A DNA stretch of 64,000 bases from NCBI GenBank assembly GCA_902764415.1, contig CACWVU010000003.1, positions 3,857 to 67,856 on the forward strand, given 5' to 3'. Every line of letters begins with the position of its first letter. Within the stretch, counting starts at the first letter, position 1. Shown one piece after another: positions 1,451 to 63,172 of the stretch. This DNA comes from an uncultured bacterium (GTDB lineage: Bacteria > Verrucomicrobiota > Kiritimatiellia > RFP12 > UBA1067). The notes under the pieces are model-generated. The model was not told where the DNA came from, did no database searches, and saw only the letters and a list, made by a program, of their open reading frames with translations. A program made the position numbers and the translations under genes.

Positions 1451-1797
1451 GAAACTCCGATCCGTATGGCTCTCGCTACCGCTCCGCAGAATATGTTTTG
1501 CTTCGCGCATAGCATTCGTTTTCCACGGCCACTCTTGCCTTGTTTTATATCTGCGGCTTCGCCGCAGTGGGCTCTTATGGGGGTCTGGGGGCTGCGCCCC
1601 CAGTTAAAAAAACCTTTGCGTTCTTTGTGTTCTTTGCGGCTGACAAAACCTGCCGTGGATCTGAATTGGGGTTGCGAGATGCGAAGCTGTGGAGCGGGAA
1701 TGCGCCCGCGCCGAAGGCGTCGGGTTGGCCGAGGGCGAAGCCCAAGCCGCGAAGCGGCCGCAAGGGCACGCGCGAGAACCCCAACCATCGGAGTTTT
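1451..1797. repeat. structured nested-palindrome repeat element, copy A (carries a 72-nt extra segment ~1698-1771)
   Basis: The termini are inverted: aaactccgat..ctcgctaccgctcc at the 5' end pairs with ggagcgg..gcgagaacccc..atcggagttt at the 3' end. Internal hairpins are ctgcggc-ttc-gccgcag and ctgggggc-tgc-gcccccag, and a TTCTTTGnG x3 array is present. A ~170-nt core differs from copy B (26971-27245) at only a handful of positions by eye. Confidence 0.85.
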
Positions 1798-1835: not shown

Positions 1836-4800
1836 ATGCATAAGTTTATAAAGCTCGTAACTTTTGCCGCGGTGGTTGCGGCGGCGACTGCCGCGGGCGC
1901 TGGCGATGCGTCGCCGTCTTCCTGGGCATGGCTTGGTTTTGTCCGCGAAGGCGGCGCAGTGGTCGCGCCTCGCCCAGACTCTCGCTTCGACTGCCCCATG
2001 CGCGGCAAATCCGTCGCGTGGGAAGCGCGCGACACGTTCAATCCTGCGGCCGCGACGTTCGGCGGAGAACTTGCCATACTCTACCGCGCCGAAGACGCGT
2101 CAGGAGAGGGCATAGGCGAGCGGACTTCGCGCATCGGTCTTGCACTATCGTCCGACGGCTCGTCGTTCAGGCGGCTTGGCAAACCTGTTCTCTTCCCGGG
2201 CAAGGACGGCGCCGAGGAATGGGACGCGCCAGGGGGGTGCGAAGACCCGCGCGTCTGCGAGACGCCCGACGGTCGCTACCTCATGCTCTACACGATGTGG
2301 AACCGGAAAGTTCCACGTCTTGGCGTTGCGACGTCGCGCGACCTTTTGAAATGGACGAAGCACGGCCCTGCCTTTTCAGGACGTTTCCGCGATCTCGCAA
2401 CGAAGTCCGCGTCAGTGGTTTGCGAACGTAAGGGCGATTCTCTCGTTGCGGCGAAAATCGGCGGCAGGTATCTTATGTACTGGGGCGAGGAGTTCGTGAA
2501 CATCGCGACTTCCGACGACCTCGTTAACTGGAGTCCGGTTTGCGACGCGAACGGAGAGCTGCTGCGCGTAATCGAGCCGCGCAAGGGGAAGTTCGACTCG
2601 GCGCTCACCGAGTGCGGCCCGCCGGCGGTCCTGACCCAGAAGGGAATCCTTCTCCTCTACAACGGAAAGAACACGGCGGGGACGGACGGCGACGCGCGCT
2701 ATGCGGCGGGTGCATACTGCGGAGGTCAGGTGCTCTTTTCCGTCGACGATCCGACCAAGGTCGTGGCGCGGCTCGACGAGCCGTTCTTCGTCCCCGAGGC
2801 GGAATACGAGAAGTCGGGGCAGTATCCGGCCGGAACGGTATTCCTTGAGGGCCTGGTTCCGTTCCGCGGCAAGTGGCGGCTTTTCTTCGGCTGCGCCGAC
2901 TCGCGCGTCGGCATGGCGACGCTACCTTGCGACGGAATGGAAAACCGGGCCGCGGGAGTCGTTTCCTTCGCCGACCCCAAGTCCGTTCCGCCCGGGAAGT
3001 TTACTTTCATTTCACCCGGCACTCACCCTTCACTCGGCATTCATGTTTCACCCGGCACTCACCCTTCACCAGCAGGGGTGTGGAATGGCGAGGAGTTCCA
3101 GAAGGATGAAACGTGTGCGTCGTTTTCGAAGTACGTCACAAACGCGGCGGAGGTAAAGCGCGTGGAGGTCTTCGCCACGGCGCTCGGCGCGTTCGAGCTT
3201 TACGTCAACGACTCGCTGGTCAGCGTGGAGGAAGACGGCAACCGGGCCGACTTCCTCAGGCCGGGCGCAACCGACGTGTGGCGCCGGCGGCATTTCCTCT
3301 CCTACGACGTCACGCGCCTTTGGCGGCGCGGCAAAGGCGAGTGGAACGACGTCTCCGCCTTCGTCGCCCGTTCGTGGTTCTCCGACGCCGCCGGCGGTCG
3401 CAAGGACGCAAAGCCCGCCTTGGCCGCAAAGGTGAAGCTGGTGTTCTGCGACGGCTCGAGCGCGATCGTGGAAACCGATCCAAGCTGGGCCGCGAATTTT
3501 TCCGCGCCTTTCGAACGTGCGGGAATCTACTTCGGCGAAGTGTGCGATGCGCATGGACAATATAGCGCCACACACTGCGCCGGAAGCATTTTTTCCGGGG
3601 TGAACACCAATTTCACCGGTGTCGTCACCGCGATGGAAGGCCCTGGCGTGTCGCTGAGGCGCGACCTTGCGCTTGATCCCAAGGAGGCGTACGTCTATTC
3701 GGATGCGGACGTCTCGGGCGCGACGAGCAACGCCTTTGGAACCGTATGCGGGCGGAAGGTCCGGCTGCGGGTCGGCGAGAGCGTCCTGCTCAAGCCCGGC
3801 GAGCGTCTCGTCGTCGACTTCGGCCAGAACGCCGCGGCGGTGCCGGAGATCGTCGCGCGGTCCTACATGGGCTTCGTCCTTTCCTTCCGGGGCGGCGAGA
3901 TGCTGAACGACTTGAACGGCGAAAAGTCGCGCGGCAACGACGGGCCGGGCGGGAGCGTCTACCGCGCAAACCTCCGCAAGCTGGCGGCGGACGGGGCGAT
4001 GGCGAAGTACGTCTTTGCGAGCGACGATGCGGAGCCGGCCGGAATTTGTGTAGCGCGCTACATGCCGTCGTTCACTTTCTTTGGCTATCGCTACGCCGAG
4101 ATTTCCGCCACCGGTCCAGTTGAGATTCTTTCCGTGAGGTCGATTCCGGTGACTTCCATTGCGAAGTCGATGGAGCGCGGCACGATCACGACCGGCAACG
4201 CCGACGTGAACCGCCTGGTCGAGAACGCGCGCTGGGGGATGTACTCCAACTACCTTTCGATCCCGACCGACTGTCCGCAGCGCGACGAGCGGATGGGCTG
4301 GTGCGGCGACACGCAGGTATTCGCGCCGGCGGCGTTTCGTTTCGCCGACGCGTACGGTTTTCTTTCCAAGTGGATGACGGACATGCGCGACGCGCAGGCG
4401 GCCGGCGAGGACGGGCTCTATCCGGCGGTTGCGCCGATGATGAGCTGGGGCGCGGTCATGTGGGGGCGCCTCGGCTGGGCCGACGCCGGCGTCGCCGTGC
4501 CCTGGACGGCGTGGCGCATGACGGGCGACACGCGGATAGTCGAGGAGAACTGGGATTCGATGTCGCGCTATGTCGACAGGATCGCCTTGACGCAACATCG
4601 CACGACCGACGGCTTCCAGTGGGGCGACTGGGTTTCGTACGAGCAGATCACACCGACCGGTTCCTGGCCCGCAGACCACCAGTGGGACGGACGCTACCTT
4701 CTGCCCGAGGCGCAGAAGTACTTCGACTACCTCGGCGGCTGCCAGTGGCTGATGGACGCGCGGCGGATGGCCGACATGGCGAAGGCGACCGGCCGCGGCG

Positions 4801-7418: not shown

Positions 7419-8569
7419 AGAAGCGCGAGATACTCCTTCTTTCTCCTTCAGCACAGAGAGACCTCACCGACATATTGTCGGGGATTGTGCCGGCTGTCGA
7501 GCGGAATGGCTGGAGCGTCCATGTGGTTGGCGACATCCATTCCCGAAAGAGACTTCTTGCTCTCCTTAAGTTCTGGTCGCCGGACGGCTGCATCGTCCAC
7601 AGTGGACTCAACGACGGAGGAATAGTCCCTGAGGATTTTGGAAGAATTCCCGTCGTGTGGATAGATCGCGATCCGGCGACGCTGCCGCCTTCGGCGCTGT
7701 GTGTCATTCAGGATTCGCGTCCCGCCGGAACACTTGCCGCCAAGGAACTCCTTAGATTCAACCTTGAGTTGTATGCGTTTGTCGACCGGGCGAACCCGCA
7801 GTTTTGGTCCGAGGACCGCCGCAAAGCTTTCCGCGAGGCCGTCGAACTTAACGGGAAAGACTATCGGGAATATACAGAGCCCAGCAAATCGAAGTGGCGC
7901 CGCGGCCTAAAGAAGTTTCTTCTTTCGCTTCCCAGGCCCTGCGGGGTGTTCTGCACAAACGACTCGGTTGCCGTTGAAGTGATGTCGCAGGCGTCAAAAC
8001 TCGGCATAGAGATGCCTGACGAGATGCTGGTTGTTGGAGTTGATGACGTAGATGCGTTTTGCGAGGCCGTTTCGCCGACGCTGACGAGCGTGCACCCCTC
8101 CTTTGCGGCGGCAGGACTTGCTGCTGCGGAGCTTCTCGCGAGAAGCATTGCTAATCCGAAGCTCAAGGGTGTGATCAAGACTTTCGTGGCGCATGAGATA
8201 ACGCGGCGGCAGTCCACGCGCCACATCACTACGAATGGCGGCAACATCGGCCTTGCGCTCGAGATGATCCGAAGGAGGGCGGCGGAGGGCGTTGCCGTCG
8301 ACGAGGTGGTGTCGCTCATGGGGTGTTCTCGGCGTGCCGCAGAACTCCGCTTCAGGCAGTATCTGCACAGCACCATTCTCGACGAGATACATGCTGCGCG
8401 CATCGAACTTGCGAAGAGAATCATATTGAGTGGCAAGTTCAAGATCGGCGGGCTGCACCTTCGCTGCGGCTTCGACTCGCCCGCGACCTTCCGCCGCGTG
8501 TTCAAGTCGGTCACGGGGCTTTCACCGCAGGCATACCTGCAAAAACACCAAGAGGTAACGACAACATGA
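7415..8569 (+). CDS. AraC-family transcriptional regulator with N-terminal LacI/periplasmic-binding-protein-like sugar-binding domain (XylR-type hybrid)
   Basis: ATG 7415 overlaps the upstream TGA (ATGA, 7415-7418) and is preceded by gggagg at 7401-7406. The C-terminal AraC HTH reads VDEVVSLMGCSRRAAELRFRQYL...LHLRCGFDSPATFRRVFKSVTGLSPQAY. The N-terminal part has an alternating beta-alpha PBP-like pattern (VFCTNDSVAVEVM, VVGVDD). The longer ORF start at 7004 lies inside the upstream gene. Confidence 0.82.
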   Translation: MKKREILLLSPSAQRDLTDILSGIVPAVERNGWSVHVVGDIHSRKRLLALLKFWSPDGCIVHSGLNDGGIVPEDFGRIPVVWIDRDPATLPPSALCVIQDSRPAGTLAAKELLRFNLELYAFVDRANPQFWSEDRRKAFREAVELNGKDYREYTEPSKSKWRRGLKKFLLSLPRPCGVFCTNDSVAVEVMSQASKLGIEMPDEMLVVGVDDVDAFCEAVSPTLTSVHPSFAAAGLAAAELLARSIANPKLKGVIKTFVAHEITRRQSTRHITTNGGNIGLALEMIRRRAAEGVAVDEVVSLMGCSRRAAELRFRQYLHSTILDEIHAARIELAKRIILSGKFKIGGLHLRCGFDSPATFRRVFKSVTGLSPQAYLQKHQEVTTT

Positions 8570-10740
8570 AAAACAGAAACAGAATCGCGCCTTTCCTGTG
8601 CGCCGCCTGGGGATCACTGGCGCTCTGCGCCTCGGCCGCGGAGGCGGTGGGATACTGCGCCTACGTCGACCCGTTCATCGGAACCGCCGGCACGGGCCAT
8701 ACATTTCCCTCCGCCTGCGTTCCCTTCGGCCTCGTCCAGGCCGGGCCCGACACGGGCAACGGAGACTGGGCGCACTGCTCCGGCTACAGCTACGAAGACA
8801 AGTCCATCTTCGGCTTCTCGCAGACCCATCTCAACGGCACTGGCTGTCCCGATCTCGGCGACGTGAGGATCCTTCCCTTTGCGGCGGAGTCCGTTCCCGG
8901 GTCGGTGGCCTACGACAAGGCGAGCGAGCGCGCGAAGCCCGGCTTCTACGCCGTCACGCTTGCCGGCGGCGTCAGGGTCGAGGCCTCCGCGACCGAGCGC
9001 TGCGCCATCTACCGCATTTCCTATCCGAAGGGCGCGAAGGGCCGTCTTCTCGTCGACCCCCACTGGTGCATAACGAGGCGCCAGCCCGCCTCCGACTGCA
9101 TCCGCTCCGTCGACGTCGCGCCTGACGGCAGGGCCGGCGTCTCGGGCAAGGTCGCCGTCAACAACTGGGTCGAGCGCACCTACGCCTTCAAGATGGAGTT
9201 CTCCCGGCCGTTCTTGTCGGAGAAGGATCTCGTCTTCGACTTCGGCGAGTCGTCGGGCGAACCGCTCGTGGTGAAGGTCGCGCTCTCCGCGCTGGGCGGC
9301 GTTTCCGACGCCGCGCGCAACCTCGCCGCGGAGATACCCGGCTGGGATTTCGACCGCGTCGCAGCTGCCGCGGACGCGAAGTGGTCGAAGATGCTCTCCT
9401 GCGTGGCGGTCGAGGGCAGCGACGACCAGAAGCGCAACTTCTACACCTCCCTCTACCACCTCTTCATCCAGCCGAACAACATTGCCGATGCCGGCCACAA
9501 GCCCTTCTACTCCACGCTTTCCACCTGGGACACCTTCCGCGCGGCGCATCCGCTCTACACGATCCTCGTTCCCGAGAAGGCGGCGGAATTCGTCGACTCG
9601 ATGCTGGAGCAGGGCCGTCGCACGGGGTATCTTCCGATCTGGACCTTGTGGGGTCGGGACAACCAGTGCATGATCGGCACACATTCCATTCCCGTCATCG
9701 TCGATTGGTTCTTGAAGGATTACTTTAGCCGCAAAGAACGCAAAGAGCACAAAGACTTTGCGGATTCTGCGTCCTTTGCGGCTAAAAAACAATACTGGCT
9801 TGCCGCGTATGAGCAGATCAAGGAGACGCTCACGAAGCGGCACGAGGGGCGCTACAAGGAGCGCTGGGATCTTCTCGACCGGCACGGATACTATCCGTAC
9901 GACGTGATCAGGAACGAATCGGTCTCGCGCACGCTTGAATGCGCCTACGACGACTGGTGCGCGGCGCAGATGGCCGCGAAGCTCGGACACGAGGAGGACG
10001 CGGAGTTCTTCCGCCGCCGGTCGGAGAACTGGCGGAACGTCTTCGATCCGTCGCTCGGACTCATGCGCAGCAAGGACTCGAAAGGCAACTGGCGCGATCC
10101 GTTCGATCCTTCCGCAGTCGGCTACGGCGAAGGCTACGACTTCACCGAGGGGAACTCGTACCAGTACACCTGGCACGTCATGCAGAACCCCGACGGCCTC
10201 GTAGCGGCGATGGGCGGACGCGAGGCGTTCGTGAAGCGGCTTGACTGGCTTTTCGAGCGGCCCGAGGTGGTGAAGGGCGAGGTTTTCGACGTCACGGGGC
10301 TCATCGGGCAGTACGTCCACGGCAACGAGCCGAGCCACCACGTCATCTACTTCTACACGCTTGTCGGCGAGCGCGACAAGGCCGCGCGCAGGGTCCGCGA
10401 CGTGTTCGACAGGTTCTACCTCCCAAAGCCGGACGGGCTCTGCGGCAACGACGACTGCGGACAGATGAGCGCCTGGTACGTCTTTTCGGCGCTCGGGTTC
10501 TATCCGTTCAACCCCTGCGGCGGCACGTACGTCCTCGGCGCGCCGCAGATTCCGAAGGCGACGATAGAGCTTGCGGGCTGCAAGACCCTGACCGTCGTCG
10601 CCAACAACCTCTCCGTCGAGAACAGGTACGTGAAGTCGGTCACGTTCAACGGCAAGCCGCTCGACAAGACGATCGAGCACGCCGACCTCATGTCCGGCGG
10701 CGAGCTCGTCTTTGAAATGACGAACGCCGCGCGAAGATGA
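8566..10740 (+). CDS. GH92 family alpha-mannosidase (secreted), carrying an in-frame palindromic insert
   Basis: ATG 8566 overlaps the upstream TGA (ATGA). Signal MKNRNRIAPFLCAAWGSLALCASAAEA. GH92 hallmarks are YVDPFIGTAGTGHTFPSACVPFGLVQAGPDT, GYLPIWTLWG, GNEPSHHVIYFY and GLCGNDDCGQMSAWYVFSALGFYP. Confidence 0.92.
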   Translation: MKNRNRIAPFLCAAWGSLALCASAAEAVGYCAYVDPFIGTAGTGHTFPSACVPFGLVQAGPDTGNGDWAHCSGYSYEDKSIFGFSQTHLNGTGCPDLGDVRILPFAAESVPGSVAYDKASERAKPGFYAVTLAGGVRVEASATERCAIYRISYPKGAKGRLLVDPHWCITRRQPASDCIRSVDVAPDGRAGVSGKVAVNNWVERTYAFKMEFSRPFLSEKDLVFDFGESSGEPLVVKVALSALGGVSDAARNLAAEIPGWDFDRVAAAADAKWSKMLSCVAVEGSDDQKRNFYTSLYHLFIQPNNIADAGHKPFYSTLSTWDTFRAAHPLYTILVPEKAAEFVDSMLEQGRRTGYLPIWTLWGRDNQCMIGTHSIPVIVDWFLKDYFSRKERKEHKDFADSASFAAKKQYWLAAYEQIKETLTKRHEGRYKERWDLLDRHGYYPYDVIRNESVSRTLECAYDDWCAAQMAAKLGHEEDAEFFRRRSENWRNVFDPSLGLMRSKDSKGNWRDPFDPSAVGYGEGYDFTEGNSYQYTWHVMQNPDGLVAAMGGREAFVKRLDWLFERPEVVKGEVFDVTGLIGQYVHGNEPSHHVIYFYTLVGERDKAARRVRDVFDRFYLPKPDGLCGNDDCGQMSAWYVFSALGFYPFNPCGGTYVLGAPQIPKATIELAGCKTLTVVANNLSVENRYVKSVTFNGKPLDKTIEHADLMSGGELVFEMTNAARR
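9724..9786 (+). repeat. 63-nt palindromic mini-element inserted in frame in the GH92 CDS
   Basis: A perfect 13-bp inverted repeat: tttagccgcaaag (9724-9736) and ctttgcggctaaa (9774-9786). The interior gccgcaaagaacgcaaagagcacaaag matches the reverse complement of the TTCTTTGnG module of elements A/B at 24 of 27 nt. It starts on a codon boundary, spans 21 codons, and translates FSRKERKEHKDFADSASFAAK. Confidence 0.8.
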
Positions 10741-10755
10741 CGGCGAAGGCATGAG

Positions 10756-11799
10756 ATGAAGCGTCTGCGGGGATTTGACTACAAGCGGCCATTCTTCTAC
10801 ATGGTGACGCTGAAGCGGCTGCCGGGGCTGGCCGCCTTCTCGCAGATTTCGGACGAGGCGCCGCCGCCGGGATGGTGCCGGACGGGCCCGGCGCCGCAAA
10901 ACGCGCACGGGCGGCCGCGTTACCTTGTCGAGAACGAGATTACCAAGGCGTTTGCGCGGGTGATCCGCGAATTCGCCGCGAAGTGGTGGGGGCTGTGGCC
11001 GATAGACTGCTTTGTGATCATGCCAGATCACATTCACTTGCTCATTCGCATCAAGGATACCGGCGATCAGATGCCGCTCGGGAGCTATGTCTACCAGCTG
11101 ATGAAGGCGCTGGCAGGGGAGTATTGGCGCCTGACGGGGCAGGCGCCGCAAAACGCGGTGCAGAGGACGGGGGCCGGCGCCGCAAAACGGCTCGAACAGG
11201 GCAAGAGTGTTGCAGGGGCGGCCTCGTCCGCCCCGCCCGCCCCTGTCTTCGAGCGAGCCTGGCATGACTGGATCGTGAAGAAGGATGGCCAGCTCGCGGC
11301 CTTTACGCGCTATATTCGCGAGAACCCGGAGCGGGCTTGGCTCCGCCGCGCCAATCGCCGATATTTTGGCAAGGTGCACAAGGTCTCTTTCCTTGGCCGC
11401 GAGTGGTTCGCGTATGGCAACCTTGCGATTCTCGATCTGCCGGTGCTTGTGGCGGTGAAGGGGCACCGCGCAACGAAGCCGGGCACGCCGGAGTGGAATG
11501 CGCTTGTGGATTCTTGCGCGCGCATCGGGCCGGGCGGCGCAGGCGTGGGAACATTCATGAGCCCGCTGGAAAAGGAATGCGGCAACGCCATCGCCAAGGC
11601 GGGTGGGAAGTGGGTTGTGCTTTCGCCCGAGGGCTTCCACGAGCGGTGGCATCCGCCGCGCGAGAAGGAGCGCTTCTGCGCCGAAGGGCGCATGCTCTTC
11701 CTCTCGCTCTGGCCGCCGATGGAACGGCGGCCGCAAAACGCGGAACTTTACCAGCGCTGCCATGAGATGGGGGACGTCGTGGCAGCGGGGCTGGGGTAG
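10756..11799 (+). CDS. RAYT-like HUH tyrosine transposase homologue (IS200/IS605 TnpA superfamily, COG1943-type) with ~155-aa C-terminal extension
   Basis: HUH motif in FVIMPDHIHLLIRI. Catalytic-Tyr helix AWHDWIVKKDGQLAAFTRYIRENPERAWL. The N-terminal GFDYKRPFFYMVT is typical of the family. The C-terminal half (from ~FLGREWFAYGNL) is of unrecognised family. Confidence 0.7.
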   Translation: MKRLRGFDYKRPFFYMVTLKRLPGLAAFSQISDEAPPPGWCRTGPAPQNAHGRPRYLVENEITKAFARVIREFAAKWWGLWPIDCFVIMPDHIHLLIRIKDTGDQMPLGSYVYQLMKALAGEYWRLTGQAPQNAVQRTGAGAAKRLEQGKSVAGAASSAPPAPVFERAWHDWIVKKDGQLAAFTRYIRENPERAWLRRANRRYFGKVHKVSFLGREWFAYGNLAILDLPVLVAVKGHRATKPGTPEWNALVDSCARIGPGGAGVGTFMSPLEKECGNAIAKAGGKWVVLSPEGFHERWHPPREKERFCAEGRMLFLSLWPPMERRPQNAELYQRCHEMGDVVAAGLG

Positions 11800-11912: not shown

Positions 11913-14900
11913 ATGAAGGTCTCAAAACTGCTCTCCGTTGTGGTGGCGGCCGCTTCCACTTTGTTCGTTGCACTCTCCGCTCGCGCGGAATTTACTTGCG
12001 AGCTTTCGTTCCTGCAGGCGCCGTCAACCGCGCTCGCGAACTTCCCCGTGCTTGTGCGGCTCGCGGAGGACGCGCCGACGGGCTTCTCCTATGCGGACTG
12101 CCCCACGGCGAGCTGCATCTGGTTCACGGACGCGAACGACGACGCGATTCCCTGCGACGTCGATACGTGGGACGATGAAGGCGAGTCGCTGGTCTGGGTC
12201 TCGGTCCCCTCGCTCTCCTCCTCCGCGACAATCAAGATGCACTGGGACGCCGCCGGCGCGCCGGCGGGCCTGCCCGCCTCGTCGCAGGTGTGGTCGCTCG
12301 CGAACTACGTCGGCGTCTGGCACATGAACGAGCTTGTATACGACTCGACCAAGGAAAAGCACTACACGCCCGACTCCTCCGCGAGCGGCTGGAACGCCTA
12401 CAAGGTCACCCAGTCCGATGCCGTCCCGGCGCCCGTCACGACGGCAACCGGCGTCACCGCCAATCCAACGCCGCTCACCGGCACGGCGATGAACATCGCC
12501 TACGGCGCCGGCAAGGACAACGCTGCATTCGGCGGCTTTGCTGTCCCAATGGCCCAGACTTCATCTTTCACGCTGGGCGGCTCCGGATTTACGCTTTCCG
12601 CCATCGTCAACTCCCAGCAGGTCGCCAACGACGGCCGCTGCCGTGTCATCGCCTTTGGCGCTGCCTACAACGAAATGGCGAACCTCTCCATCGGTTGCGA
12701 CAACATCTATGTCATGGGAGGAACCAACCATCTCAAGGCCAATCCCCGCGGCCAGACGGACTGGGTTTACTCGGCTGGCGTCTTCAACTCGCCCCGCTCG
12801 AAGATCTACGCCGACGGCGTCTGCCTTTCCGGTAGCAACGAAGGCAACCCCAGCCTCGCGAGCCTCTCGCTCACGAAGGGCATCGGCCTCGGCTGCTTCA
12901 TCGACGGCAAGAACACCCTTGACGGCTACCTCGATGAAGCCCGCATCCGCAATGTCGCCTCGACCGGCGAATGGGTTGCCGAGGAATACAAGACCGTGAC
13001 GACGGCGAACTATGTCTCCTTCGGCGAGGTGGAGACCGGCGTCGAGGTACTGCGCCTCGGCCCTGTCGCCGTCTCGGACGTGACGCCGACGAACGCGGTC
13101 GTCACGGGCGAGCTGCGCACGCTCGGCGAAGGCGCGACCTCGGCCGACGTCTGGCTCGTCTATACGGACGGCGGCGCCACGACGAACCGCATCGCCCTCG
13201 GGCCGAAGAGCGGCGAACCCTCTGCGCTCTCGGTCACGCTCGAGAACCTCGCCGAGAAGACGACCTACACCTGCTGGTTCACCGCGACGAACAACCTCTC
13301 GGCCGGCGCGGACTCCGCCACGGCGTCGTTCAAGACGAAGCGGATTCCGACTGGAACCGGCATCTACGAGTGCGAGCTTTCCTTCCCCTCCGCGCCCGCG
13401 ACGCCCCTTGAGAACTTCCCCGTCCTCGTGCGTCTTGCCAACGACGCGCCCGAGGGCTTCCTCTACGAGGACTGCCCGACCGCCGCGCACCTCTGGTTCA
13501 CGGACGGATACGATACCGTCCTTCCCTTCGAGGCAGACACGTGGAACACGGCGGGTGAATCGCTCGTCTGGGTTTCGGTGCCGTCCTTCTCGTCGGCGAC
13601 GAAGATCACGATGCACTGGTCGAGCGACGCGGACAGCGTCGAGGATTCGCCCGACGCGCGCGAGGTGTGGACGCGCGCCGGCTACAACGCCGTCTGGCAC
13701 TTTAGCGGCAGCGCGGCGGAGTCCGTGAACGGGCTCAACGCCAGTGTCACAAAGGGCTCACCGACCTACGATGGCAACGCATCCTATCCCGGCCCGCTCG
13801 GCAAGACGCTCTGGCTCGCCAACAACTCCGCGCTCGGCTATGCTGTCGATCCCGCCTGGACGACGCTCGGCGCGAACGCAAGTCTGACCATCTCGTGCCT
13901 GGCGCGGCCAGTCACCGCAAGCCTCGGCGGCTACGCCCGCATGGTCTGCTGCCAGACCTCCTGGGAAGTCAAGCACGGCTACACGTTCGCGGTCCACAGT
14001 CCTATCAGTAAGATCACGCTTGGCTCGTCTGATTCGAGCGAACTCGCGCTGAACAGCGGCACCGGCAATTGGTCCGGCTGGCCCTCCACCGACTGGGTTC
14101 ATCTTACGGCAAGATACGACAACACCGCCGGCGCCATCTTCAAGGACGGCCAGACGGCGATAAGCGGCGCGATCAAGACGCTCGCCACGCCGGAGGGCGT
14201 GCTCTACCTCGGTGCGAACGGCGACGGCAACCAGCGGTTCTGGGTCGGCGGCCTCGACGAAATCCGCATCCGCGCGGCGGCTTCCTCGGACGACTGGGTC
14301 GCGGCGGAATACGCGACGATGGCGACGGCGAACTATGTTTCCTTCGGCGACGTGGAGGAAGCCGCCGCCGGCGTTTCGCTCGAGTTCGGAACGCCGTCCG
14401 TTTCGTCCGTCTCGGCGACGGGCGCGATCATTTCGGCGCGCCTCAAGAGCCTCGGCGAGAACGCGACGTCCGCAAATCTCTGGGTTGTCGTTTCCGGCTT
14501 CGGCCAGACGCGCACCTATCCGCTTGTTCCGGCGACAGGGCCGAAGGTCGTCGAGGCGACGCTTTCGGGCCTCCAGCCCGGCGCGGACTGGACCGCCTAC
14601 CTGACGGCGACGAACAACGCCTCGCCCGCCGTTGGGACGAATTCCGCCGCCGTCGTCTTCTCGACGGATTCCGACGCCGGCGGCCTCGGTGGGGTCGGCC
14701 TCTATCAGGCGGTCACGACCAGCAGCGCGATTCCCGCCGACGCCGCGGCGAACTGGGATATTGCCGCGTCCGGCATCGTTACGCTCGGCCCGCTCGCCAT
14801 GCGCTGCGCCCTGAGCTCAGGAACGCACCAGTGGCAGGCGACGGACGGCTCCAGCTACCAATGGAGCAACAACACGGGCTTCGGCTATGCGGGCTGCATG

Positions 14901-17900
14901 TATATGGAGGCCGGCAAGGACTACTACTTCGGCGGCGCGATCGACGACGCGGGCTGCGTGTGGGTCGATGATGGCGTTGCTGGCTGGGATGCAAAGCGCA
15001 CCGCCTCGCAGCTCGGCGGCTACCAAAGTTGGAACAAGGCAGGCCCCTATACCGTAGCCAAGACCGGCTTCCGCCGCGTGGTCTTCTCCTGCTGGAACGG
15101 TGGCGGCGGCGCCGGCGCGGAATCCGGCGGTTCAGTCACCAGCGAACAGGCGGCGCTCCGCTACGCGGCAGTCGCGAACGGCGCGGCCGCGCCAGGCAAG
15201 GACGACGCCTCCTGGCTTCCCGCGGTCGATCCGGGCGACGGCTCGCTCTTCCGCCTCAGCGTCGGTGTGCTCCGCGGGGTCTCCGTTCTTTCGGCGGTGC
15301 GCGACGGCACGCTCCTCTCCGCACGGGTCGCCGTGGACGCGGCGGCTCCCGGTGAAATAAGCAAGCTCAGGTATGTCTTCGGCGCGACGCACGGCGGGTT
15401 CAACCCTGCGGACTGGGAGGGCGGCTCGCTCGTCGTGTCGTCGCTCCCGGCGACGGCGGCGACGAACGACTACATCGTCGGCATCGCGGCGGACACGCGC
15501 TACGTGCGCTTCTACATCGACGACGACGGCGCGATCGGCTGGTCGGCCACGATTTCGCTCGACTGGGCCGGCGAAACGACGATAGCGGACGACTTCCTCT
15601 TCATCGGGGACCCCGAAGTCCTGTCCGTAGGCGCCGACAAGGCGACCGTTTCGGCGGTTCTCAACGCGCCCGGCGACGGCGCGACGGCGGCCCAGGCCTG
15701 GTTTGTCGTCACCGGCGGCGGCGAGACTTTCACCGTTCCGGCCGGCACGGCCACATCGCGGACGAACCTCACGGTTGAAGTTACCGGTCTTGTGCCAGAG
15801 ACGGAATATTCAATCTGGTGCACTGCGACGAACAACGCCGCCGAGCCCGCCGGCGCCGATACCCCGGCCGCGACCTTCACGACCGGCCCCAAGTTTTCCG
15901 GCTGGACGCCGGGGCAGACCGCGTTCAAGCAGAACGGAAAGTCGTTCTCCGCGACAGTCCCGATTCTCAACCTCGGCGTCGGCACGACGACCCTCTACCT
16001 GATGACGGGACCGGGCAACGGCAACGTCCCGAACATTTCGGCGACTAAGGTCGTGACGGGAACCGGTGAGCAGACGATTACCGCCGACTTCTCCGCCCTG
16101 CCGTGGGGCACGAAGTACTACTACGGGCTCATGATGGTGAGCGGGACGGCCGAGGAGGCCGTCACCAACGGTCCCTTCACCGCCAGCGGAGAGATCTTCA
16201 GCAACAAATCCTTCGAGCTCCAGGACAACTCGACCTACACATGGGTCGGCGGGGCGACGGGCGTCTGGAACGACGCCGGCAACTGGGAGCGGACTGCGGC
16301 GGGGTCGAACGCCACCACGCTCTACGCCGGCTATCCGGTCTACGGCTCGACGGCGGTCTTCGCGACAAATGTCCAGGTGACCGTGACCATTCCCGCAACG
16401 GAGGGAACGACGACGGTCTCCGGCGGCGTTCCGTCCTGGTCGGTCTCGAATGTTAACCTGACCAATATGGATGCGCCGCTTGTCTTCACACCTGGGCCGC
16501 AGGGCCAGACGAGCATCTTCTACATCGTCGGAAGCATCGTCGCGAGCAGGACATCGAACCGGCTTGTCTTTGACAACTGCCTGTGCCAGCTCCCCAAGCT
16601 CCAGGACACAGGCGCAAACGCCTACAATGCCGAGAACGGCGGAAACCTCGTCGTCACCATTACGGGCGGGTCAGAGGCGTCGTTTAGTTCCATTGAGCCG
16701 AACTATCCGGGCGTCAAGCTCCGCATCGAGGACGGATCGCTCGTGAAATCCGGGACTATTTGCGGCGGCTCCGGCAACACGTCTTATCCGGCGGTGATCG
16801 AAATCGAGGACGCGGAGCTGCGCTCGACGGGGTATATCCAGCCTGACTATCGGGGGATTGGCGGTACGGTCTTCCGGTTCCTCGGCCGCAACCCGAAGCT
16901 TCTGTCCAGCTACTACGCGACCAAGAACTCCGACACCCCGTCCGCCTTCGAGTTTGTCGTGCCGGCCGGTGGCTACTTTACGCCGCCGCTCCACTTCTAC
17001 GGCGACAGCATCCTCGCGTCCGGCGGAAGCAAGGCGATTCTGCTACGCGTCTCCGCCGATTCGCCCGCGCTGGCGACGGGTGTCGGGACGACGACCCGAT
17101 TTGTGAATGCGAAGATCGCGGCCGGCTCCTCCACCGCGCGTGTGGACTTCGACCTGCCTACCGGCGTGACGACGTCAACCTACACGGACGCAAACGGCAA
17201 CGCCGACGGCTATGTCGTCACGATTCCGGCCGGCGACGGCCCGGCGCTTTCGGATGTCGCGCTCGCCTACGCGGGCAACGGCAGCTTCGACGTGGCGGGG
17301 TCGGTTGACCCAGGTTCCGCAGGCAGCGCCACCGTGAAGGTCTATCTGGCGGAAGGGGAGGGCGATTTCGCCGCGGCCGCGACGACGAACGTCACCGCCG
17401 CGGGCGCCTTCCGTCTGCGGGTTTCCGGGCTGACGGACGGAACGGCGTATCGCTGGTATGCCGAGGCCGTTTCCGCGTCGGGCAGCCACGCGACCGAACC
17501 TGAAAGCGTCACCTTCCAGTCCGGCATCGCGAGCGTTTCCGCCGCGACGGTGGAGCCGCATCCCGTCTTGAACGGCGATACGGTCTACACGTTCACCGAT
17601 TCGACCGCCCCCGGCTCAATTACTTTCTCGCAGGGCGGCCTCGTCGAAGTCCTCGTCGTCGGTGGCGGCGGCGCGGGCGGCAACAGCGCCGGCGGCGGCG
17701 GCGGCGGCGGCGCGTTCCTCCATCGCCGTGCCTTCGTTCCCGCCGGAACGTATGCGGTCACCGTCGGCAAGGGCGGCTACAACGCGACGGTAGCCAACAA
17801 CGTTTTGCCGGTCGATGCGGAATCCTCCGCGCTCGGCGCTCTCTTCGTCGCGGCCGGCGGTGGCGCGGGCGGATGCTGGGATATCCCGAGCGGCACGTCG

Positions 17901-22522: not shown

Positions 22523-22608
22523 GAAGGGACGGAAGGGACAAAAGGGACAGAAGGGACAAACATGACCAGCCAGTCGCTTAAGTCGCTTTTGTCGCTCTCG
22601 TCCCTTGA
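22522..22608. repeat. hairpin built from two phased 9-mer arrays (4 x nnAAGGGAC / 4 x GTCsCTnnn)
   Basis: The left array is cgaagggac ggaagggac aaaagggac agaagggac (22522-22557). A 15-nt loop follows. The right array is gtcgcttaa gtcgctttt gtcgctctc gtcccttga (22573-22608). The arms are imperfect reverse complements, with a recurrent central mismatch per unit. Confidence 0.8.
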
Positions 22609-22687
22609 ATGGGGCTCAAATGGGACCAAAGGGACAAACATGACCAGCCAGTCGCTTAAGTCGCTTTTGTCGCTCTCGTCCCTTGAA
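22551..22687. repeat. two exact 59-nt direct repeats (22551-22609 and 22629-22687, period 78 nt)
   Basis: aagggacaaacatgaccagccagtcgcttaagtcgcttttgtcgctctcgtcccttgaa occurs twice, identical by eye. The second copy ends 10 nt before ATG 22698. Confidence 0.85.
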
Positions 22688-22697
22688 GAGGTCCCCA

Positions 22698-23386: not shown

Positions 23387-23558
23387 CAAAGGGACGGAAG
23401 GGACAGAAGGGACGAAAGGGACGGGCCAGGGCTTGGCGGTGCCTGGGCCGGGCTGCCCAGGGCTTGCGGGCCAGGGCCGGGCTGGCCAAGGCTTTGCAGG
23501 GCCGGGCTTGGCGGGCTTGGCGGTCGCTTAGGTCCCTTCTGTCGCTTTTGTCCCTTTT
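23387..23558. repeat. long hairpin: 4 x nnAAGGGAC array + ~100-nt GC-rich degenerate repeat loop + 4 x GTCsCTTnn array
   Basis: The left array is caaagggac ggaagggac agaagggac gaaagggac (23387-23422). The middle is made of gggcc(a/g)gggct(t/g)gc-type units. The right array is gtcgcttag gtcccttct gtcgctttt gtccctttt (23523-23558). It begins 2 nt after stop TAG 23382-23384. Confidence 0.8.
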
Positions 23559-26600: not shown

Positions 26601-27247
26601 CGACGGTGATCGGAAGCGATCTCGTGCTGAAGCAGGGGCAGGTGTTCATCGGCGACAAGGATTCGAAGTTCGCCGCGCCGGAAGGGAAGCGCGTCACGGT
26701 GAAGCTGGCGGACGGCGTGATGTTCGAGGGCGGCACCTGGAAGGGCGTCGACTTCGACCTCAGGGGCTGCAGGCACTTCATCTTCCGCCGCGTGTGGACG
26801 GAGGACTGCCGCGTGCTCACGGACGGCGCGTCAGAGTGCGTGATAGAATACCTCACATCGCCGAATCCGACACCGAAGCAGGTTTTCGAGATAATCTGCT
26901 CGGGGGAGGAAGCATCACACAGAGTCACAGAGACACAGAGGGCTAGGGGCCTGTGTGCGGCGCTGTGTATGAAACTCCGATCCGTGGGGCTCTCGCTACC
27001 GCTCCGCAGAATGGACTATGCTTCGCATTTGACATTCGTCATTACACGGACACTCTTACCGTGTTTTATATCTGCGGCTTCGCCGCAGGGGGCTCTTATG
27101 GGGGTCTGGGGGCTGCGCCCCCAGTTAAAAAAAACTTTGCGTTCTTTGTGTTCTTTGCGGCTGACAAAACCTGCCGTGGATCTGAATTGGGGTTGCGAGA
27201 TGCGAAGCTGTGGAGCGGTAGCGAGAACCCCAACCATCGGAGTTTAA
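23651..27247 (+). CDS. secreted two-domain glycosidase: clan GH-D (GH27/GH36-like) alpha-galactosidase-type barrel + second GH29-like domain; the last ~110 codons are translated repeat element (true 3' end uncertain)
   Basis: Signal MKINYRFFALACAAACCPLAGFAAA. Clan GH-D motifs are FILDDGWQ, GFKLDFIDSF and NMLRVGDCP. The second domain runs from ~25.43 kb (WMAGKIGAFVHYWPG ... HAWWFDGAGG). The ORF reads through outer IR 26916-26941 and element copy B to TAA 27245-27247. Confidence 0.75.
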   Translation: MKINYRFFALACAAACCPLAGFAAAAAATFSFGEVKVDCEERDGWKLAFSREVAPDGAEIAKIALDCAEAKTPPKTRLSLAVPQVGMDYAWNVNTGDCGMRPNWGANSSTEVAQGMPVFVYFDGNDTSHFSVAAEECVHHLNYKGGVREEGSLLEIGIGWFETPEAPISHYETRVRFDARARGFADAVREAVAWIERTAGIAPCRVPASACDPLYSSWYCFHQDVHAADIEAELAIAAKLGMKTFILDDGWQMEDTSRGYAFCGDWQVAPRLFPDMAAHVKRVQDMGVKYMVWYSVPFVGQKSVNYERFKGKYLYENPGIGAAVLDPRFPEVRQFLVDTYVKALKDWNIDGFKLDFIDSFAIWGEDPAAKENYAGRDIKSLPLAVDALMTEVKNALTAIKPDILVEFRQSYVGPAIRKYGNMLRVGDCPGNLRRNRFAIANLRLASGGTAVHSDMLEWNFADSPEHAALYVINSMFGVVQYSVMLRDAPKEHLAMVEKWIKFSQDHRDTLLNGKFTPRHPELQYPVIEAEGDDEVVIGLYDDGRVVDVPEGKRTFVMNASGKDSFVVRRGGKLSEVACKSGDWIEFRAPPPPETDWMAGKIGAFVHYWPGLAGHEAKKFDVEQLKRDLVAAGVDYFFLTLGQNAGTYIAPNETYDRLTGHKRGEATAACNGRDIPREVIEALKGTGIKFCLYLPCRGPGRAPEDCEKLGYIPSRDDHSDCTDTPEGLENWCKVIAEWSERYGRDVHAWWFDGAGGPGFGGDRETLAIRAAARRGNPDAVCAFAKKIVDYDHGFRWVLGMDRKEGRELDTLFTDYNCRGEARHDVWAGCDFTAGEATNPMRLPCDGREVLGRQWFTLTYLGGMWGWTDVRHTDNVWSDWMKRVIPLGASVCFDVGFVHEDGRMSPAQVAQLRRIVALARGKPDAETAARHERETKVVSALRDVELAYGRGCENPLCLEDRDTGDAEIRAALDKDGAVFVNERAKATVIGSDLVLKQGQVFIGDKDSKFAAPEGKRVTVKLADGVMFEGGTWKGVDFDLRGCRHFIFRRVWTEDCRVLTDGASECVIEYLTSPNPTPKQVFEIICSGEEASHRVTETQRARGLCAALCMKLRSVGLSLPLRRMDYASHLTFVITRTLLPCFISAASPQGALMGVWGLRPQLKKTLRSLCSLRLTKPAVDLNWGCEMRSCGAVARTPTIGV

Positions 27248-27275
27248 AACCTCTGTGTCTCCGTGCCTCTGTGTG
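26916..27275. repeat. nested-palindrome repeat element copy B (26971-27245) enclosed by an outer 26-nt inverted repeat of CACAGAG-type words
   Basis: The outer arms are cacacagagtcacagagacacagagg (26916-26941) and cctctgtgtctccgtgcctctgtgtg (27250-27275), complementary at 24 of 26 positions. The inner element is collinear with copy A (1451-1797) and lacks its 72-nt segment. Confidence 0.85.
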
Positions 27276-28559: not shown

Positions 28560-29936
28560 ATGAGAAACCTCTGCGGAACGATCCTTGCCGCGGCGATGCT
28601 CGCGGCAGGGATCGGATGCGGTCGGCGCGGCGACGAGGCCAGCTTCGCGACGTTCGACGCCAGGGCGAGGGCGGGCGAGAGCCTTACCGTCGCCTACTTC
28701 GGCTGCTCGCTCATGTGGAGCGCAAACGCCTCCGAGCCGAACGAGACCGGGTTCCGCGGGCTCATGTCGCGCTATCTGGAGAAGCGGTATCCCAAGGCGC
28801 ATTTCCGCTTTGTGGATGCCTCGGTCGGCGGCACGGGCGCGATGCTGGGCGTGTTTCGTCTCGAAAGGGACGTCCTGTCCAGGCAGCCGGATCTCGTGTT
28901 CCTCGACTTCGCGTGCAACGACGGCTGGGACGGCAAGGCGCTGGCGACGACCTGCTGCTACGAGTCAATCGTCCGGCGACTGGTCGGCGACGGCATTCCC
29001 GTGATGCAGATGTTCTTCACCTTCCGGTTCTGGCTCGAGGGGTCGCTTGAGCCGGGAGCCGAGACGGCCGTCCACCAGCGGATAGTGCCGTACCGCCGCC
29101 TTGCGGAGGAGTACGCGACCGGCGTCGGCGACGTGTACCGGGACTCGCCGCTCGTCGCCGACCTGAAAAGCGGCAAGACCACGTTCGACGCCGTGTGGCC
29201 GATCGACGGCGGGCACCCCGCCGACCTCGGCTACCACTACTTCGCGGAAGCCGCCTTTGCCGGCTTCGAGCGGGCGGTCAGGGAGGGAACAGTCTGCCGC
29301 GTTCCGGAAAAGCCGGTGTTCGGGACGGTGGCGGATGTGCAAAGACTTGATTTTAGCCACAACCACCTTCGCCATCCGCCTACGCAAAGACTACGGCGGA
29401 CAAGAGGCTACGGTGGTCAAGAAGAACGCAAAGAACGCAAAGGGATTTGCGGCAATGGATTTGTGGCTGGCGCAAACACAAATTCCTGGCGCAGGGCGCT
29501 TACGTACCGCACTTCGCTTTGGTACGACGGGCTTTCCTCGCGGTGGATGGACGATGTGCTGGCATTCTCCGGCACGAACCGCGCGCCCGTGTCCGTGGAG
29601 GCGGCGGGCAACATGCTGGGCGTGTTCGGCGAGGCGGACGAGAACGCGCTGACGGCGGCGATTCTCTGCGACGGGGAGAAGATCGCGGACTTCAACGCCT
29701 ACCACAACGCCGGCAAGGGGCGGCTCTTCTTCTGGCGGGACGTGCTGCTGAAGGATTATGCGAAAGGGGAGTCCGCGGCGCATAAATGGATCGTCGACCC
29801 CGTCCCCGACGGCAAGGGAGAGTTCCGGATCGGCGCCATCTGCACGGCGACGATCAAGCCGGAGGCGGAATTCGCCGGCGACGCCGGCTCAGATTTCGAC
29901 ATCTCCGCCATCGACCATGCCCGCGGCGTGAAGTAA
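28560..29936 (+). CDS. SGNH/GDSL-family hydrolase (lipoprotein-like signal) + C-terminal beta-rich domain, with in-frame repeat insertion in the linker
   Basis: Signal/lipobox MRNLCGTILAAAMLAAGIGCG. SGNH blocks are VAYFGCSLMWS, DLVFLDFACNDG and WPIDGGHPADLGY. ATG 28560 lies 5 nt after the upstream TGA, with gaagg as SD. Confidence 0.8.
   Translation: MRNLCGTILAAAMLAAGIGCGRRGDEASFATFDARARAGESLTVAYFGCSLMWSANASEPNETGFRGLMSRYLEKRYPKAHFRFVDASVGGTGAMLGVFRLERDVLSRQPDLVFLDFACNDGWDGKALATTCCYESIVRRLVGDGIPVMQMFFTFRFWLEGSLEPGAETAVHQRIVPYRRLAEEYATGVGDVYRDSPLVADLKSGKTTFDAVWPIDGGHPADLGYHYFAEAAFAGFERAVREGTVCRVPEKPVFGTVADVQRLDFSHNHLRHPPTQRLRRTRGYGGQEERKERKGICGNGFVAGANTNSWRRALTYRTSLWYDGLSSRWMDDVLAFSGTNRAPVSVEAAGNMLGVFGEADENALTAAILCDGEKIADFNAYHNAGKGRLFFWRDVLLKDYAKGESAAHKWIVDPVPDGKGEFRIGAICTATIKPEAEFAGDAGSDFDISAIDHARGVK
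29355..29468 (+). repeat. composite palindromic repeat inserted in frame in the SGNH gene linker
   Basis: The inverted repeat agccacaa (29355-29362) / ttgtggct (29461-29468) spans 114 nt, or 38 codons. The interior aagaacgcaaagaacgcaaagg matches the reverse complement of elements A/B at 21 of 22 nt. It is followed by tttgcgg, and ctacggcgg/ctacggtgg is a direct repeat. It translates ..HNHLRHPPTQRLRRTRGYGGQEERKERKGICGNGFVA.. Confidence 0.7.
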
Positions 29937-61926: not shown

Positions 61927-61975
61927 GTTCGTGGTTCGTGGCTCGTGGTTCGTGATTCGCGGGCTGTGGATTGTG
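61927..61975. repeat. seven exactly phased heptamers (consensus GyTCGTG) directly after the giant-gene stop codon
   Basis: gttcgtg gttcgtg gctcgtg gttcgtg attcgcg ggctgtg gattgtg. It starts 2 nt after TAG 61923-61925 and ends 21 nt before ackA ATG 61996. No inverted partner lies nearby. Confidence 0.8.
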
Positions 61976-61995
61976 AAAAAGGGAAAAAGGAGAAA

Positions 61996-63135: not shown

Positions 63136-63172
63136 AAACCTAGAATCCTAGAAATCTAGAAGTCTATAAAAA
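63123..63172. repeat. phased CTAG octamer array spanning the ackA stop codon
   Basis: ttctaggcg cctagaaa cctagaat cctagaaat ctagaagt ctataaaa. TAG triplets sit at 63125, 63133 (the ackA stop), 63141, 63149 and 63157, exactly 8 nt apart, so all three frames are hit. CTAG is palindromic, so the same holds on the minus strand. Confidence 0.85.

Follow-up and report, generated by a model that had tools for sequence, protein, structure and literature searches.

A dispersed hairpin repeat lies in frame in a hypervariable loop of a GH92 glycoside hydrolase gene from an uncultured Kiritimatiellia bacterium

The colonisation of genes by palindromic repeats that preserve the reading frame is textbook knowledge for Rickettsia, and scattered reports describe it for repetitive extragenic palindromic (REP) sequences and miniature transposable elements with inverted repeats (MITEs). 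The Rickettsia palindromic elements (RPEs) are described, in the part of PMC10969869 that summarises Ogata et al. 2000/2002, as palindromes of ~150 bp that form ten sequence families and are restricted to Rickettsia, and they carry a CGTC tetranucleotide at one end (PMC3733652). Intragenic REPs are known outside Rickettsia as well, some of them at recurrent sites; for example, different REPs occupy approximately the same recB site in Xanthomonas (Di Nocera et al., PMC3733652). MITEs such as ERIC, BOX, and the Anabaena MITEs are small, lack autonomy, have inverted repeats at their ends, and are in some cases translated within host open reading frames (ORFs) (PMC10969869). Here, we describe a 63-nucleotide (nt) palindrome that lies in frame within a gene for a GH92 family glycoside hydrolase, in a 64-kb stretch of DNA from an uncultured Kiritimatiellia bacterium (contig CACWVU010000003.1; the whole stretch is hereafter called the window). 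The setting is that of free-living, high-GC glycan degraders of the Planctomycetes-Verrucomicrobia-Chlamydiae (PVC) group. We propose, with a probability of about 0.65, that the palindrome derives from a hairpin repeat that is dispersed and lies mostly between genes, that this copy is tolerated in frame in a helix-helix loop, and that the loop is a hot spot through module turnover and the exchange of cassettes by homologous recombination.

Three nested features are central to this proposal:

8563..10740, + strand: gene for a GH92 family glycoside hydrolase of 725 aa with a signal peptide; the insert is residues 388-408
9706..9813, + strand: hypervariable loop cassette, TGGTTCTTGAAGGATTAC ... 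AAACAATACTGGCTTGCCGCGTATGAG, which differs among near-identical GH92 genes and is common to distant ones; GC 0.46
9724..9786, + strand: imperfect palindrome of 63 nt, from inverted-repeat, fold, and period-9 analyses; GC 0.48

The palindrome is the top-ranking short-range inverted repeat of the entire window and consists of two 31-nt arms (9724-9754 and 9756-9786) that are 81% complementary and separated by a 1-nt spacer. Its outermost 13 bp pair perfectly (TTTAGCCGCAAAG / CTTTGCGGCTAAA), and it begins on a codon boundary of the GH92 ORF and spans exactly 21 codons, encoding the peptide FSRKERKEHKDFADSASFAAK. An earlier note on this DNA had described the perfect 13-bp inverted repeat, the start on a codon boundary, and the length of 21 codons, and these are confirmed, apart from the trivial omission of one K before QYW. 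The left arm reads as TTTAGCC followed by three 9-mers of the type GCAAAGARC and the right arm is an inverted copy, with a period of 9, 2.9 copies, and 88% matches, so that the units are imperfect. As RNA, the palindrome folds at -29.3 kcal/mol, compared with -14.1 +/- 2.8 for shuffled sequences (z = -5.5), and none of 200 shuffles folded as well. Stop codons fall in only one of the three forward frames (TAG within TTTAGCC and TAA within GGCTAAA), and read-through is easy because the other two are open. The GC content of the GH92 gene is 0.64 and that of the window 0.65, so the palindrome (0.48) and the cassette around it (0.46) are GC-poor, which marks them as foreign in character.

The ORF of the host gene is intact, with matches to the Pfam domains Glyco_hydro_92N and Glyco_hydro_92 (E = 7e-160), and all catalytic-domain motifs are kept. 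In the solved GH92 structures 7zgm, 6f8z, and 6f91, ~20 residues are missing at exactly the position of the insert. An AlphaFold2 model (40-sequence alignment; mean predicted local distance difference test score, pLDDT, of 73; predicted template-modelling score, pTM, of 0.81) puts the insert (residues 388-408) between helices 376-388 and 401-424; pLDDT is <50 at residues 392-400, and in the model the latter half of the insert prolongs the following helix at its N-terminal end. This agrees with the loop position that the earlier note had proposed. The model would set the loop at the far end of a 13-residue helix that starts right after the conserved CMIGTHS, which suggests some distance from the catalytic site.

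That the palindrome belongs to a dispersed repeat family is indicated within the window itself, where two intergenic modules are built of the same units:

1614..1640, - strand: intergenic module of three CAAAGAACR units, AGCCGCAAAGAACACAAAGAACGCAAAGG, adjoining a GC hairpin and an A-run, in the MITE-like element 1451-1797
27135..27161, - strand: second intergenic module of three CAAAGAACR units, in the MITE-like element 26971-27245

The core of the palindrome, GCCGCAAAGAACRCAAAGA, recurs at 1622-1640(-) and 27143-27161(-), and thus in both of the intergenic elements to which the earlier note had related it. Degenerate matches lie at 9737 and 29425, which gives 5 matches in the window compared with 0.04 expected; 25 of 28 nt are the same as in the window's intergenic module. 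A scan for CAAAGAACRCAAAGARCRCAAAG, with one genome per species, matched at least 119 genome stretches (~0.14 expected for a random 23-mer), at loci that range in GC from 0.45 to 0.69, and several metagenome-assembled genomes (MAGs) have 2-4 contigs that each carry a match. A long spanning ORF is absent at most of the 140 pattern matches listed, in keeping with a mostly intergenic family. At L061 (labels in L denote the genome contigs or loci compared, and those in P clusters of GH92 protein homologues), an intergenic minimal-loop palindrome is near-identical to that of the GH92 gene, GATT...AAAAAA flanks included. A scan of metagenomes with the palindrome centre gave 52 matches, mostly to an unrelated DNA polymerase I coding motif, EIRKAFVPR, and only ~8 true elements. 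In the literature, the repeat sequence string was found in no paper, and nothing relevant was found on Kiritimatiellae repeats. The CAAAGAACR-type hairpins with a conserved boundary are apparently an undescribed family.

The two MITE-like elements have the ends TGAAACTCCGAT ... ATCGGAGTTT and a common core in which a GC hairpin, CTGGGGGCTGCGCCCCCAG, is followed by TTAAAAAAA and then by (CTTTGYGTT)x3 GGCT. The element at 26971-27245 is enclosed by inverted (CACAGAG)n arms (26917-26941 and 27250-27275), and in L003 (3113-3271) the same core lies directly between (CACAGAGG)3 and (CTCTGYG) arms, without the MITE halves. Long pure CAAAGAACR arrays, of up to ~14 units or more, are present in L015, L090, L097, L105, L120, and L125, some of them within long open frames, as in an actinobacterial isolate genome (Glaciihabitans).

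The second line of evidence is the diversity of the loop among relatives. We compared 120 GH92 homologues of 62-98% identity, whose source names, where given, are Kiritimatiellae. Between PV(I/L)VD and Q(I/V)K(E/D)TL, these take one of two forms, namely a short, ancestral-type loop, AYLKGF.GDW..VY, as in the GH92 proteins of the PDB, or WFLK(D/E) - insert - (Y/F)W(L)(A/S)AY, with >15 distinct inserts. The inserts include the palindrome peptide, its right half alone (P0044), NPVNPVNPV or NPVNPD, EVGEKSSSSRKEEKIHSPTPT.NSNS, SHKEHK...SASLRLCVK, STCSTCSTW, and HVEHVDHVE, as well as composites, for example GNGEWGTGNG + DFSHKERKDRK + SASLRLCVK. In the DNA, the variable parts are always bounded by TTGAARGA and TAYTGGCT, have an A-run at the end in most cases, and are built of 7-9-nt units in three to four copies, frequently as inverted pairs. 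In a protein tree with the loop masked, the close clade (at most 8% divergent from the window protein) holds at least six alleles, including the ancestral AYLKGFKGDWPSVY; P0012, which has the ancestral loop, is only 2.3% divergent from the window protein. The middle clade has the ancestral loop exclusively and the far clade (26-37% divergent) insert-bearing loops exclusively, and the same cassettes turn up in the close and far clades alike. The presence of so many alternative repeat cassettes makes this loop a hot spot rather than the site of a single event. Inserts also vary in unit number (NPVNPVNPV and NPVNPD; SRKERKERK and SRKERK), L005 has lost the left arm through an in-frame 33-nt deletion, and the reading frame is preserved in every surviving allele. 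The unit-number variants, the arm loss in L005, and nested insertions point to slippage and hairpin-associated rearrangement.

A third line of evidence concerns the ~108-nt cassette in which the palindrome sits. Compared with the no-insert allele of L001, the DNA is 97-100% identical for hundreds of bases on each side and collapses only at ~9667-9810, where the ~108 nt of the window stand in place of 45 nt for the ancestral helix-helix loop. The codons beside the palindrome co-vary with it, reading WFLKDY ... KQYWLAAY in place of AYLKGFKGDWPSVY. A clean insertion of 63 nt is ruled out as a model, since these adjoining codons also differ from the no-insert allele. In comparisons between clades, L003 and L237 are 99% identical over the cassette (71/72 nt) and 79% and 77% identical in the upstream and downstream flanks, and L126 and L236 are 95% identical over the cassette (106/111 nt) and 79% and 76% in the flanks. 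Because cassettes 95-99% identical lie in flanks that are 76-79% identical, cassettes move among GH92 genes through short-patch recombination. The converse is seen between the window and L129, with flanks 99% (upstream) and 97% (downstream) identical and a cassette 85% identical. The ends of the tracts differ from pair to pair, and the far-clade-like sequence of L126 begins ~25 nt further upstream; such variable ends are therefore as expected of ordinary short-patch homologous recombination and argue against a site-specific cassette integrase. The 21-aa segment had been suggested to be a lineage-specific insertion. This holds insofar as it is absent from most GH92 proteins, and fails insofar as the flanking codons change with it and the segment is also present in a GH92 only 65% identical (P0104/L006), as well as in L224 and L202, where it would represent cassette sharing and not ancient conservation. 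The no-insert GH92 of L001/L002, 97-100% DNA-identical to the window gene outside the loop, has other neighbours, a radical SAM gene upstream and a Fic gene downstream, which reflects a recent paralogue, relocation, or gene conversion between two loci.

The GH92 gene is not the only host. In the window, a second repeat element lies in frame in a hydrolase gene:

29349..29468, + strand: second in-frame repeat element, 120 nt, GATTTTAGCCACAA ... AAGAACGCAAAGAACGCAAAG ... TTTGTGGCT, in the SGNH/GDSL hydrolase ORF 28560-29936, with a hairpin nested in the left arm

This element begins with the shared GAT TTT AGC CAC AA (D-F-S-H), and SGNH homologues have at the same site either a 10-aa loop or other mixes of modules (SRKERKERK..., SHKEHKDH..., NSNS..NPVNPV). 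Elsewhere, the palindrome is found in frame in the linker of a regulator that combines Peripla_BP_3 and AraC-HTH domains (L206/L219/L227; Pfam), in far-clade GH92 genes, and near residue 514 of a 754-aa ORF in L184 (28-2289), which also carries SASLRLCV in frame near residue 280 and in which no Pfam domain was found. In L016, a Kiritimatiellia MAG, the module is likewise found in frame, here within an ORF of abhydrolase-CMD-cupin type. As for the hairpin nested in the left arm of the SGNH element (29363-29420), its minus strand has three GTAG motifs, of which GTAGGCGGATGG resembles the heads of enterobacterial REPs. We rejected a GTAG-REP identity for it, as GTAGGCGGATGG is not enriched (6 matches in the window, 6.0 expected) and the hairpin has a single copy in the window.

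How, then, does this element compare with the systems described to date? The likeness to RPEs that the earlier note had proposed is borne out in behaviour, in that a repeat-derived palindrome lies within an intact GH92 frame and the same modules lie in frame in other genes. RPEs and the present repeats are both selfish palindromic repeats, intergenic and in frame in unrelated genes (here GH92, SGNH, the Peripla_BP_3/AraC regulator, L184, and L016), with an added peptide that is compatible with the fold. An RPE family, however, encodes one conserved peptide, whereas the window element is 63 nt long, consists of 9-nt units, can be combined with other modules, and, as compared with RPEs by description, sits at hot-spot loops whose content turns over. 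Its host also differs, since it is a PVC bacterium that is free-living and high in GC; for three window proteins, the source names of homologues are Kiritimatiellae or Kiritimatiellia bacterium. The palindrome ends in TTTAGCC and GGCTAAA and its sole CGTC (9770-9773) is internal to the right arm, so it has no terminal tag of the RPE or REP type. With REPs, their paired forms (REPINs), and bacterial interspersed mosaic elements (BIMEs), the repeats share short hairpins that tend to follow genes downstream and are frequently grouped as inverted pairs or mosaic clusters, together with intragenic cases and a nearby HUH gene resembling the REP-associated tyrosine transposases (RAYTs). They differ in lacking a GTAG/CGTC tag and in having arms of tandem 9-mers rather than a GC-rich palindrome of 20-40 bp, and the RAYT-like gene is a distant relative that scores 35 bits where the cutoff is 80, encodes an additional C-terminal domain, and lacks flanking repeats. 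Terminal inverted repeats, as in MITEs, are present in the form of the two 31-nt arms, 81% complementary, but no clean empty site or unambiguous duplication was found for the window element, which is as small as a MITE can be and consists of little but its arms. No insertion sequence with matching ends was found in the 8-kb flanks that were read, which were not searched systematically.

More distant parallels are found among tandem and coding repeats. The short tandemly repeated repetitive (STRR) sequences attributed to Mazel and colleagues (1990) are reportedly dispersed tandem heptamers of heterocystous cyanobacteria, and we know of no description of them as hairpin pairs or in-frame protein inserts. 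They resemble the present repeats as dispersed intergenic arrays of a 7-9-nt unit, but the window unit is 9 nt, its host is PVC-type, and its units are inverted, imperfect, and common to several loci. The repeats of Borgs, which are archaeal extrachromosomal elements, are perfect direct tandem repeats of local origin that evolve rapidly, have in-ORF units divisible by three, and give low-complexity, probably disordered segments (PMC9879509). The window units share the latter features but are imperfect, both inverted and direct, and common to unrelated loci and genomes. PARCELs are likewise coding repeats with DNA dyad symmetry and a patchy spread over distant taxa, but they comprise a 25-residue motif in long tandem tracts that form whole ORFs, and not a short hairpin in an enzyme loop (PMC2996958). 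Thus, the window element resembles RPEs and intragenic REPs in its behaviour and belongs to neither. Intragenic REPs had already been reported outside Rickettsia (PMC3733652), and the behaviour is not peculiar to the GH92 gene or to this genome.

We postulate the following course of events. The 63-nt palindrome would be a copy from a dispersed hairpin family in which each arm has about three 9-nt units of CAAAGAACR type bounded by TTWANCCR, and this copy would have become lodged in the DNA for the loop that connects two GH92 helices. Three properties would explain its survival there, namely a length of 3n, the lack of stops in the frame that is read, and the hydrophilic nature of the encoded loop, which the fold tolerates; most probably, the insert itself contributes no function to the enzyme. 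The diversity at the loop may then arise in two layers. In the first, modules would enter, nest, and gain or lose units or whole arms, perhaps through replication slippage together with some means of copying that has hairpins or single-stranded DNA as its substrate. In the second, GH92 genes exchange whole cassettes (~70-130 nt) through ordinary short-patch homologous recombination that relies on their conserved coding flanks, and it is most likely by such an exchange that the window allele was acquired. A candidate for the enzyme that would copy modules between unrelated loci is encoded next to the GH92 gene:

10756..11799, + strand: distant RAYT-like HUH/Y1 gene, 16 nt downstream of the GH92 gene; candidate mobilising enzyme

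The RAYT-like ORF matches NF047646 at E = 8.8e-9 and 35 bits, below the cutoff of 80, with HUH and YIxxNP motifs present. It contains four in-frame 33-nt hairpin repeats (at 10873, 11125, 11159, and 11710), each a GGCGCCTG-ACGGGG-CAGGCGCC hairpin followed by GCAAAACGCG and encoding peptides of the G(P/Q)APQNA type. Its 1202 homologues are 289-478 aa long; repeats fill three hypervariable segments, and an additional C-terminal domain is conserved. A search of solved structures by sequence gave no matches for the protein. In L005 (8179-8228), no RAYT-like gene lies between the GH92 gene and the LamG-type giant gene, and in L126 (4096-4150) it is reduced to its first 14 codons; the gene is therefore a presence/absence polymorphism among close strains. 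A role for this gene as a regular neighbour of the elements was considered and dropped.

Several observations weigh against the scenario as a whole. No mobilising enzyme for the elements was found, the modules do not flank the RAYT-like gene, and a tblastn search with it against all loci matched only the window, the syntenic L003/L004, and, weakly, L073, which leaves it near 1 of the 119 other loci listed and its association with the elements unsupported. Neither a clean empty site nor an unambiguous target-site duplication was found, as the no-insert allele differs over ~45 flanking nt, and a TA duplication would be indistinguishable given that TTTA...TAAA, the flanking sequence, also forms a palindrome. 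The cassette that holds the palindrome exceeds its flanks in identity by a modest margin (85% between the window and L006, with flanks at 81% and 76%; 85-86% against 76-82% when L224 is included), so its transfer is likely rather than certain. That the insert is translated, which would give peptides such as ERKEHKDFADSASFAAK, and that it is neutral are both inferred, the former solely from intact ORFs. The taxonomic breadth of the family is taken from unverified MAG record titles, by which ~34 of the 80 titled loci among the matches listed belong to PVC taxa and others are labelled Chloroflexota, Acidobacteriota, Proteobacteria, Cyanobacteria (L064, L069, and L077), Bacteroidota, and more. The family-wide helix is 85% paired, a percentage inflated by preselection of hairpins with at least 20 of 27 complementary positions. 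Finally, in viral contigs the real pattern gave 20 matches, the reversed pattern 34, mostly in AT-rich giant-virus contigs, and two permuted-unit patterns none; the reversed control is as frequent as the real pattern, and abundance alone is therefore no evidence. The argument for one family instead draws on the shared boundary and hairpin architecture, with inverted arms close to the arrays and covariation between the arms, and not on frequency.

The loop could instead be adaptive, with diversifying selection for surface recognition, partner binding, or protease susceptibility favouring its replacement and the repeats serving as raw material. The six or more alleles among near-identical genes, the transfer of cassettes between divergent GH92 genes, and the similar hot spots of the L184 ORF and of SGNH, another enzyme of exported type, would all fit. 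However, P0012, a member of the close clade, retains the ancestral short loop. The inserts are intergenic repeats read as low-complexity peptide, and the same modules are also found in the linker of a cytoplasmic regulator and in the RAYT-like protein, where surface recognition does not apply. We consider this explanation unlikely.

A purely local origin is, in our view, quite unlikely. Under this explanation nothing is mobile, the palindrome arose through 9-nt slippage and quasi-palindrome (template-switch) mutation, and its likeness to intergenic repeats is convergence. A 9-nt period keeps the frame intrinsically, copy-number variants exist, the reversed-sequence control is also frequent in viral contigs, and arrays of 7-9-nt period are common in the module-carrying genomes, where 7-nt arrays are as common as 9-nt ones and those of 10-12 nt are few. 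Convergence does not readily account for the non-periodic (GATT)TTAGCCR boundary and trailing A-run, which are common to intergenic copies and to copies in unrelated genes. Across the family, the upstream boundary TTTAACCR is kept, with C at -2 in 115 of 122 cases; at -3, a position taken by A in the repeat unit, 85 of 122 have C. An inverted arm lies within 130 nt of 46 of 123 array starts (null, 8/2460; 0.3%). The near-identity to the window intergenic module (25/28 nt) and the recurrence of the same multi-module strings at unrelated loci (L109, GH92 alleles, and SGNH alleles) also argue against a local origin.

Alternatively, the hairpin could be maintained for a role at the level of RNA or DNA, such as a site for RNase III or other processing, a pause in translation that serves folding or export, a cruciform, or a protein-binding site. 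The predicted hairpin is strong (z = -5.5), and arms covary across the family in a way that selection for pairing could explain, with both G:C and A:U pairs at positions 8/59 (20 and 16), 17/50 (24 and 14), and 26/41 (15 and 14); 0 of 500 shuffles reach the covariation score, and slid-partner controls are much lower. The same covariation is equally explained by arms that are copied as one unit. Near-identical GH92 genes do without the hairpin, having (AATCCTGTY)x3 in L003, the right arm alone in L005, and no insert in L001, and pairing is weaker in L129 and L006 (-32 and -34 kcal/mol, against -45 over the same span of sequence). In addition, no terminator-like or promoter-like signal was found at 9724-9786, and Rfam searches, which covered the palindrome, all of the window, and 18 loci with hairpins, returned only sub-threshold, chance microRNA-like matches and one transfer RNA, with no matching family. 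A maintained role is thus very unlikely. An assembly or sequencing artefact, or a pseudogene, has a negligible chance of being the explanation, for although chimeric assembly is able to create palindromes, the allele is present in many independent assemblies and samples (P0001-P0008, e.g., 67 member sequences on 8 contigs; the independent contig L185; L129), and the ORF is intact with all catalytic-domain motifs conserved.

A bolder version of the dispersed-repeat proposal is that one nonamer-hairpin family, spread over many phyla, supplies portable, frame-neutral loop cassettes, and that an enzyme acting on hairpins or single-stranded DNA, possibly from the RAYT-like HUH family abundant in Kiritimatiellia, inserts modules preferentially into existing hairpins and so makes the hot spots self-perpetuating. 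We regard this as improbable; if true, it would be a natural, transposase-driven route to new protein loops and linkers, as opposed to the passive tolerance of junk DNA.

On the more modest proposal of tolerated repeats, the locus is of interest in several respects. Among strains with 92-98% identity elsewhere, one and the same enzyme loop carries in some cases the ancestral sequence and in others one of six or more repeat cassettes. The turnover of modules can be seen side by side with the transfer of cassettes between paralogues or orthologues that have diverged. The GH92 loop is, therefore, a testable system for the creation of protein loops and linkers by selfish intergenic repeats. Such inserts also inflate apparent protein diversity in metagenomic catalogues, splitting the 90%-identity clusters of otherwise identical enzymes.

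Other repeats and large genes were observed in the window. An 18-nt repeat in 3.3 copies (3011-3070) lies in frame (…SPGTHPSLGIHVSPGTHPSP…), apparently between domains, in a 1860-aa ORF that fuses GH130 and rhamnosidase domains. There are two giant ORFs, one at 11913-22505 (3530 aa) and one at ~30.6-62 kb (an open frame of ~10,450 aa); the former, judged from its orthologue in L003/L004, contains large duplications as well as DUF2341, Laminin_G_3, and Gly_rich_2 domains. At 22523-22690 and 23389-23558, downstream of that 3530-aa gene, (GAAGGGACR)x4 arrays stand opposite GTCGCTT/GTCCCTT arrays, with a 78-nt tandem duplication, and in the syntenic L003 (18651-18760) the copy number differs. Two further arrays, both intergenic and not palindromic, begin right after stop codons, one at 61927-61996, with (GTTCGTG)n and then (GAAAAAGG)n, and the other, (CCTAGAAA)x4, at 63131-63161.

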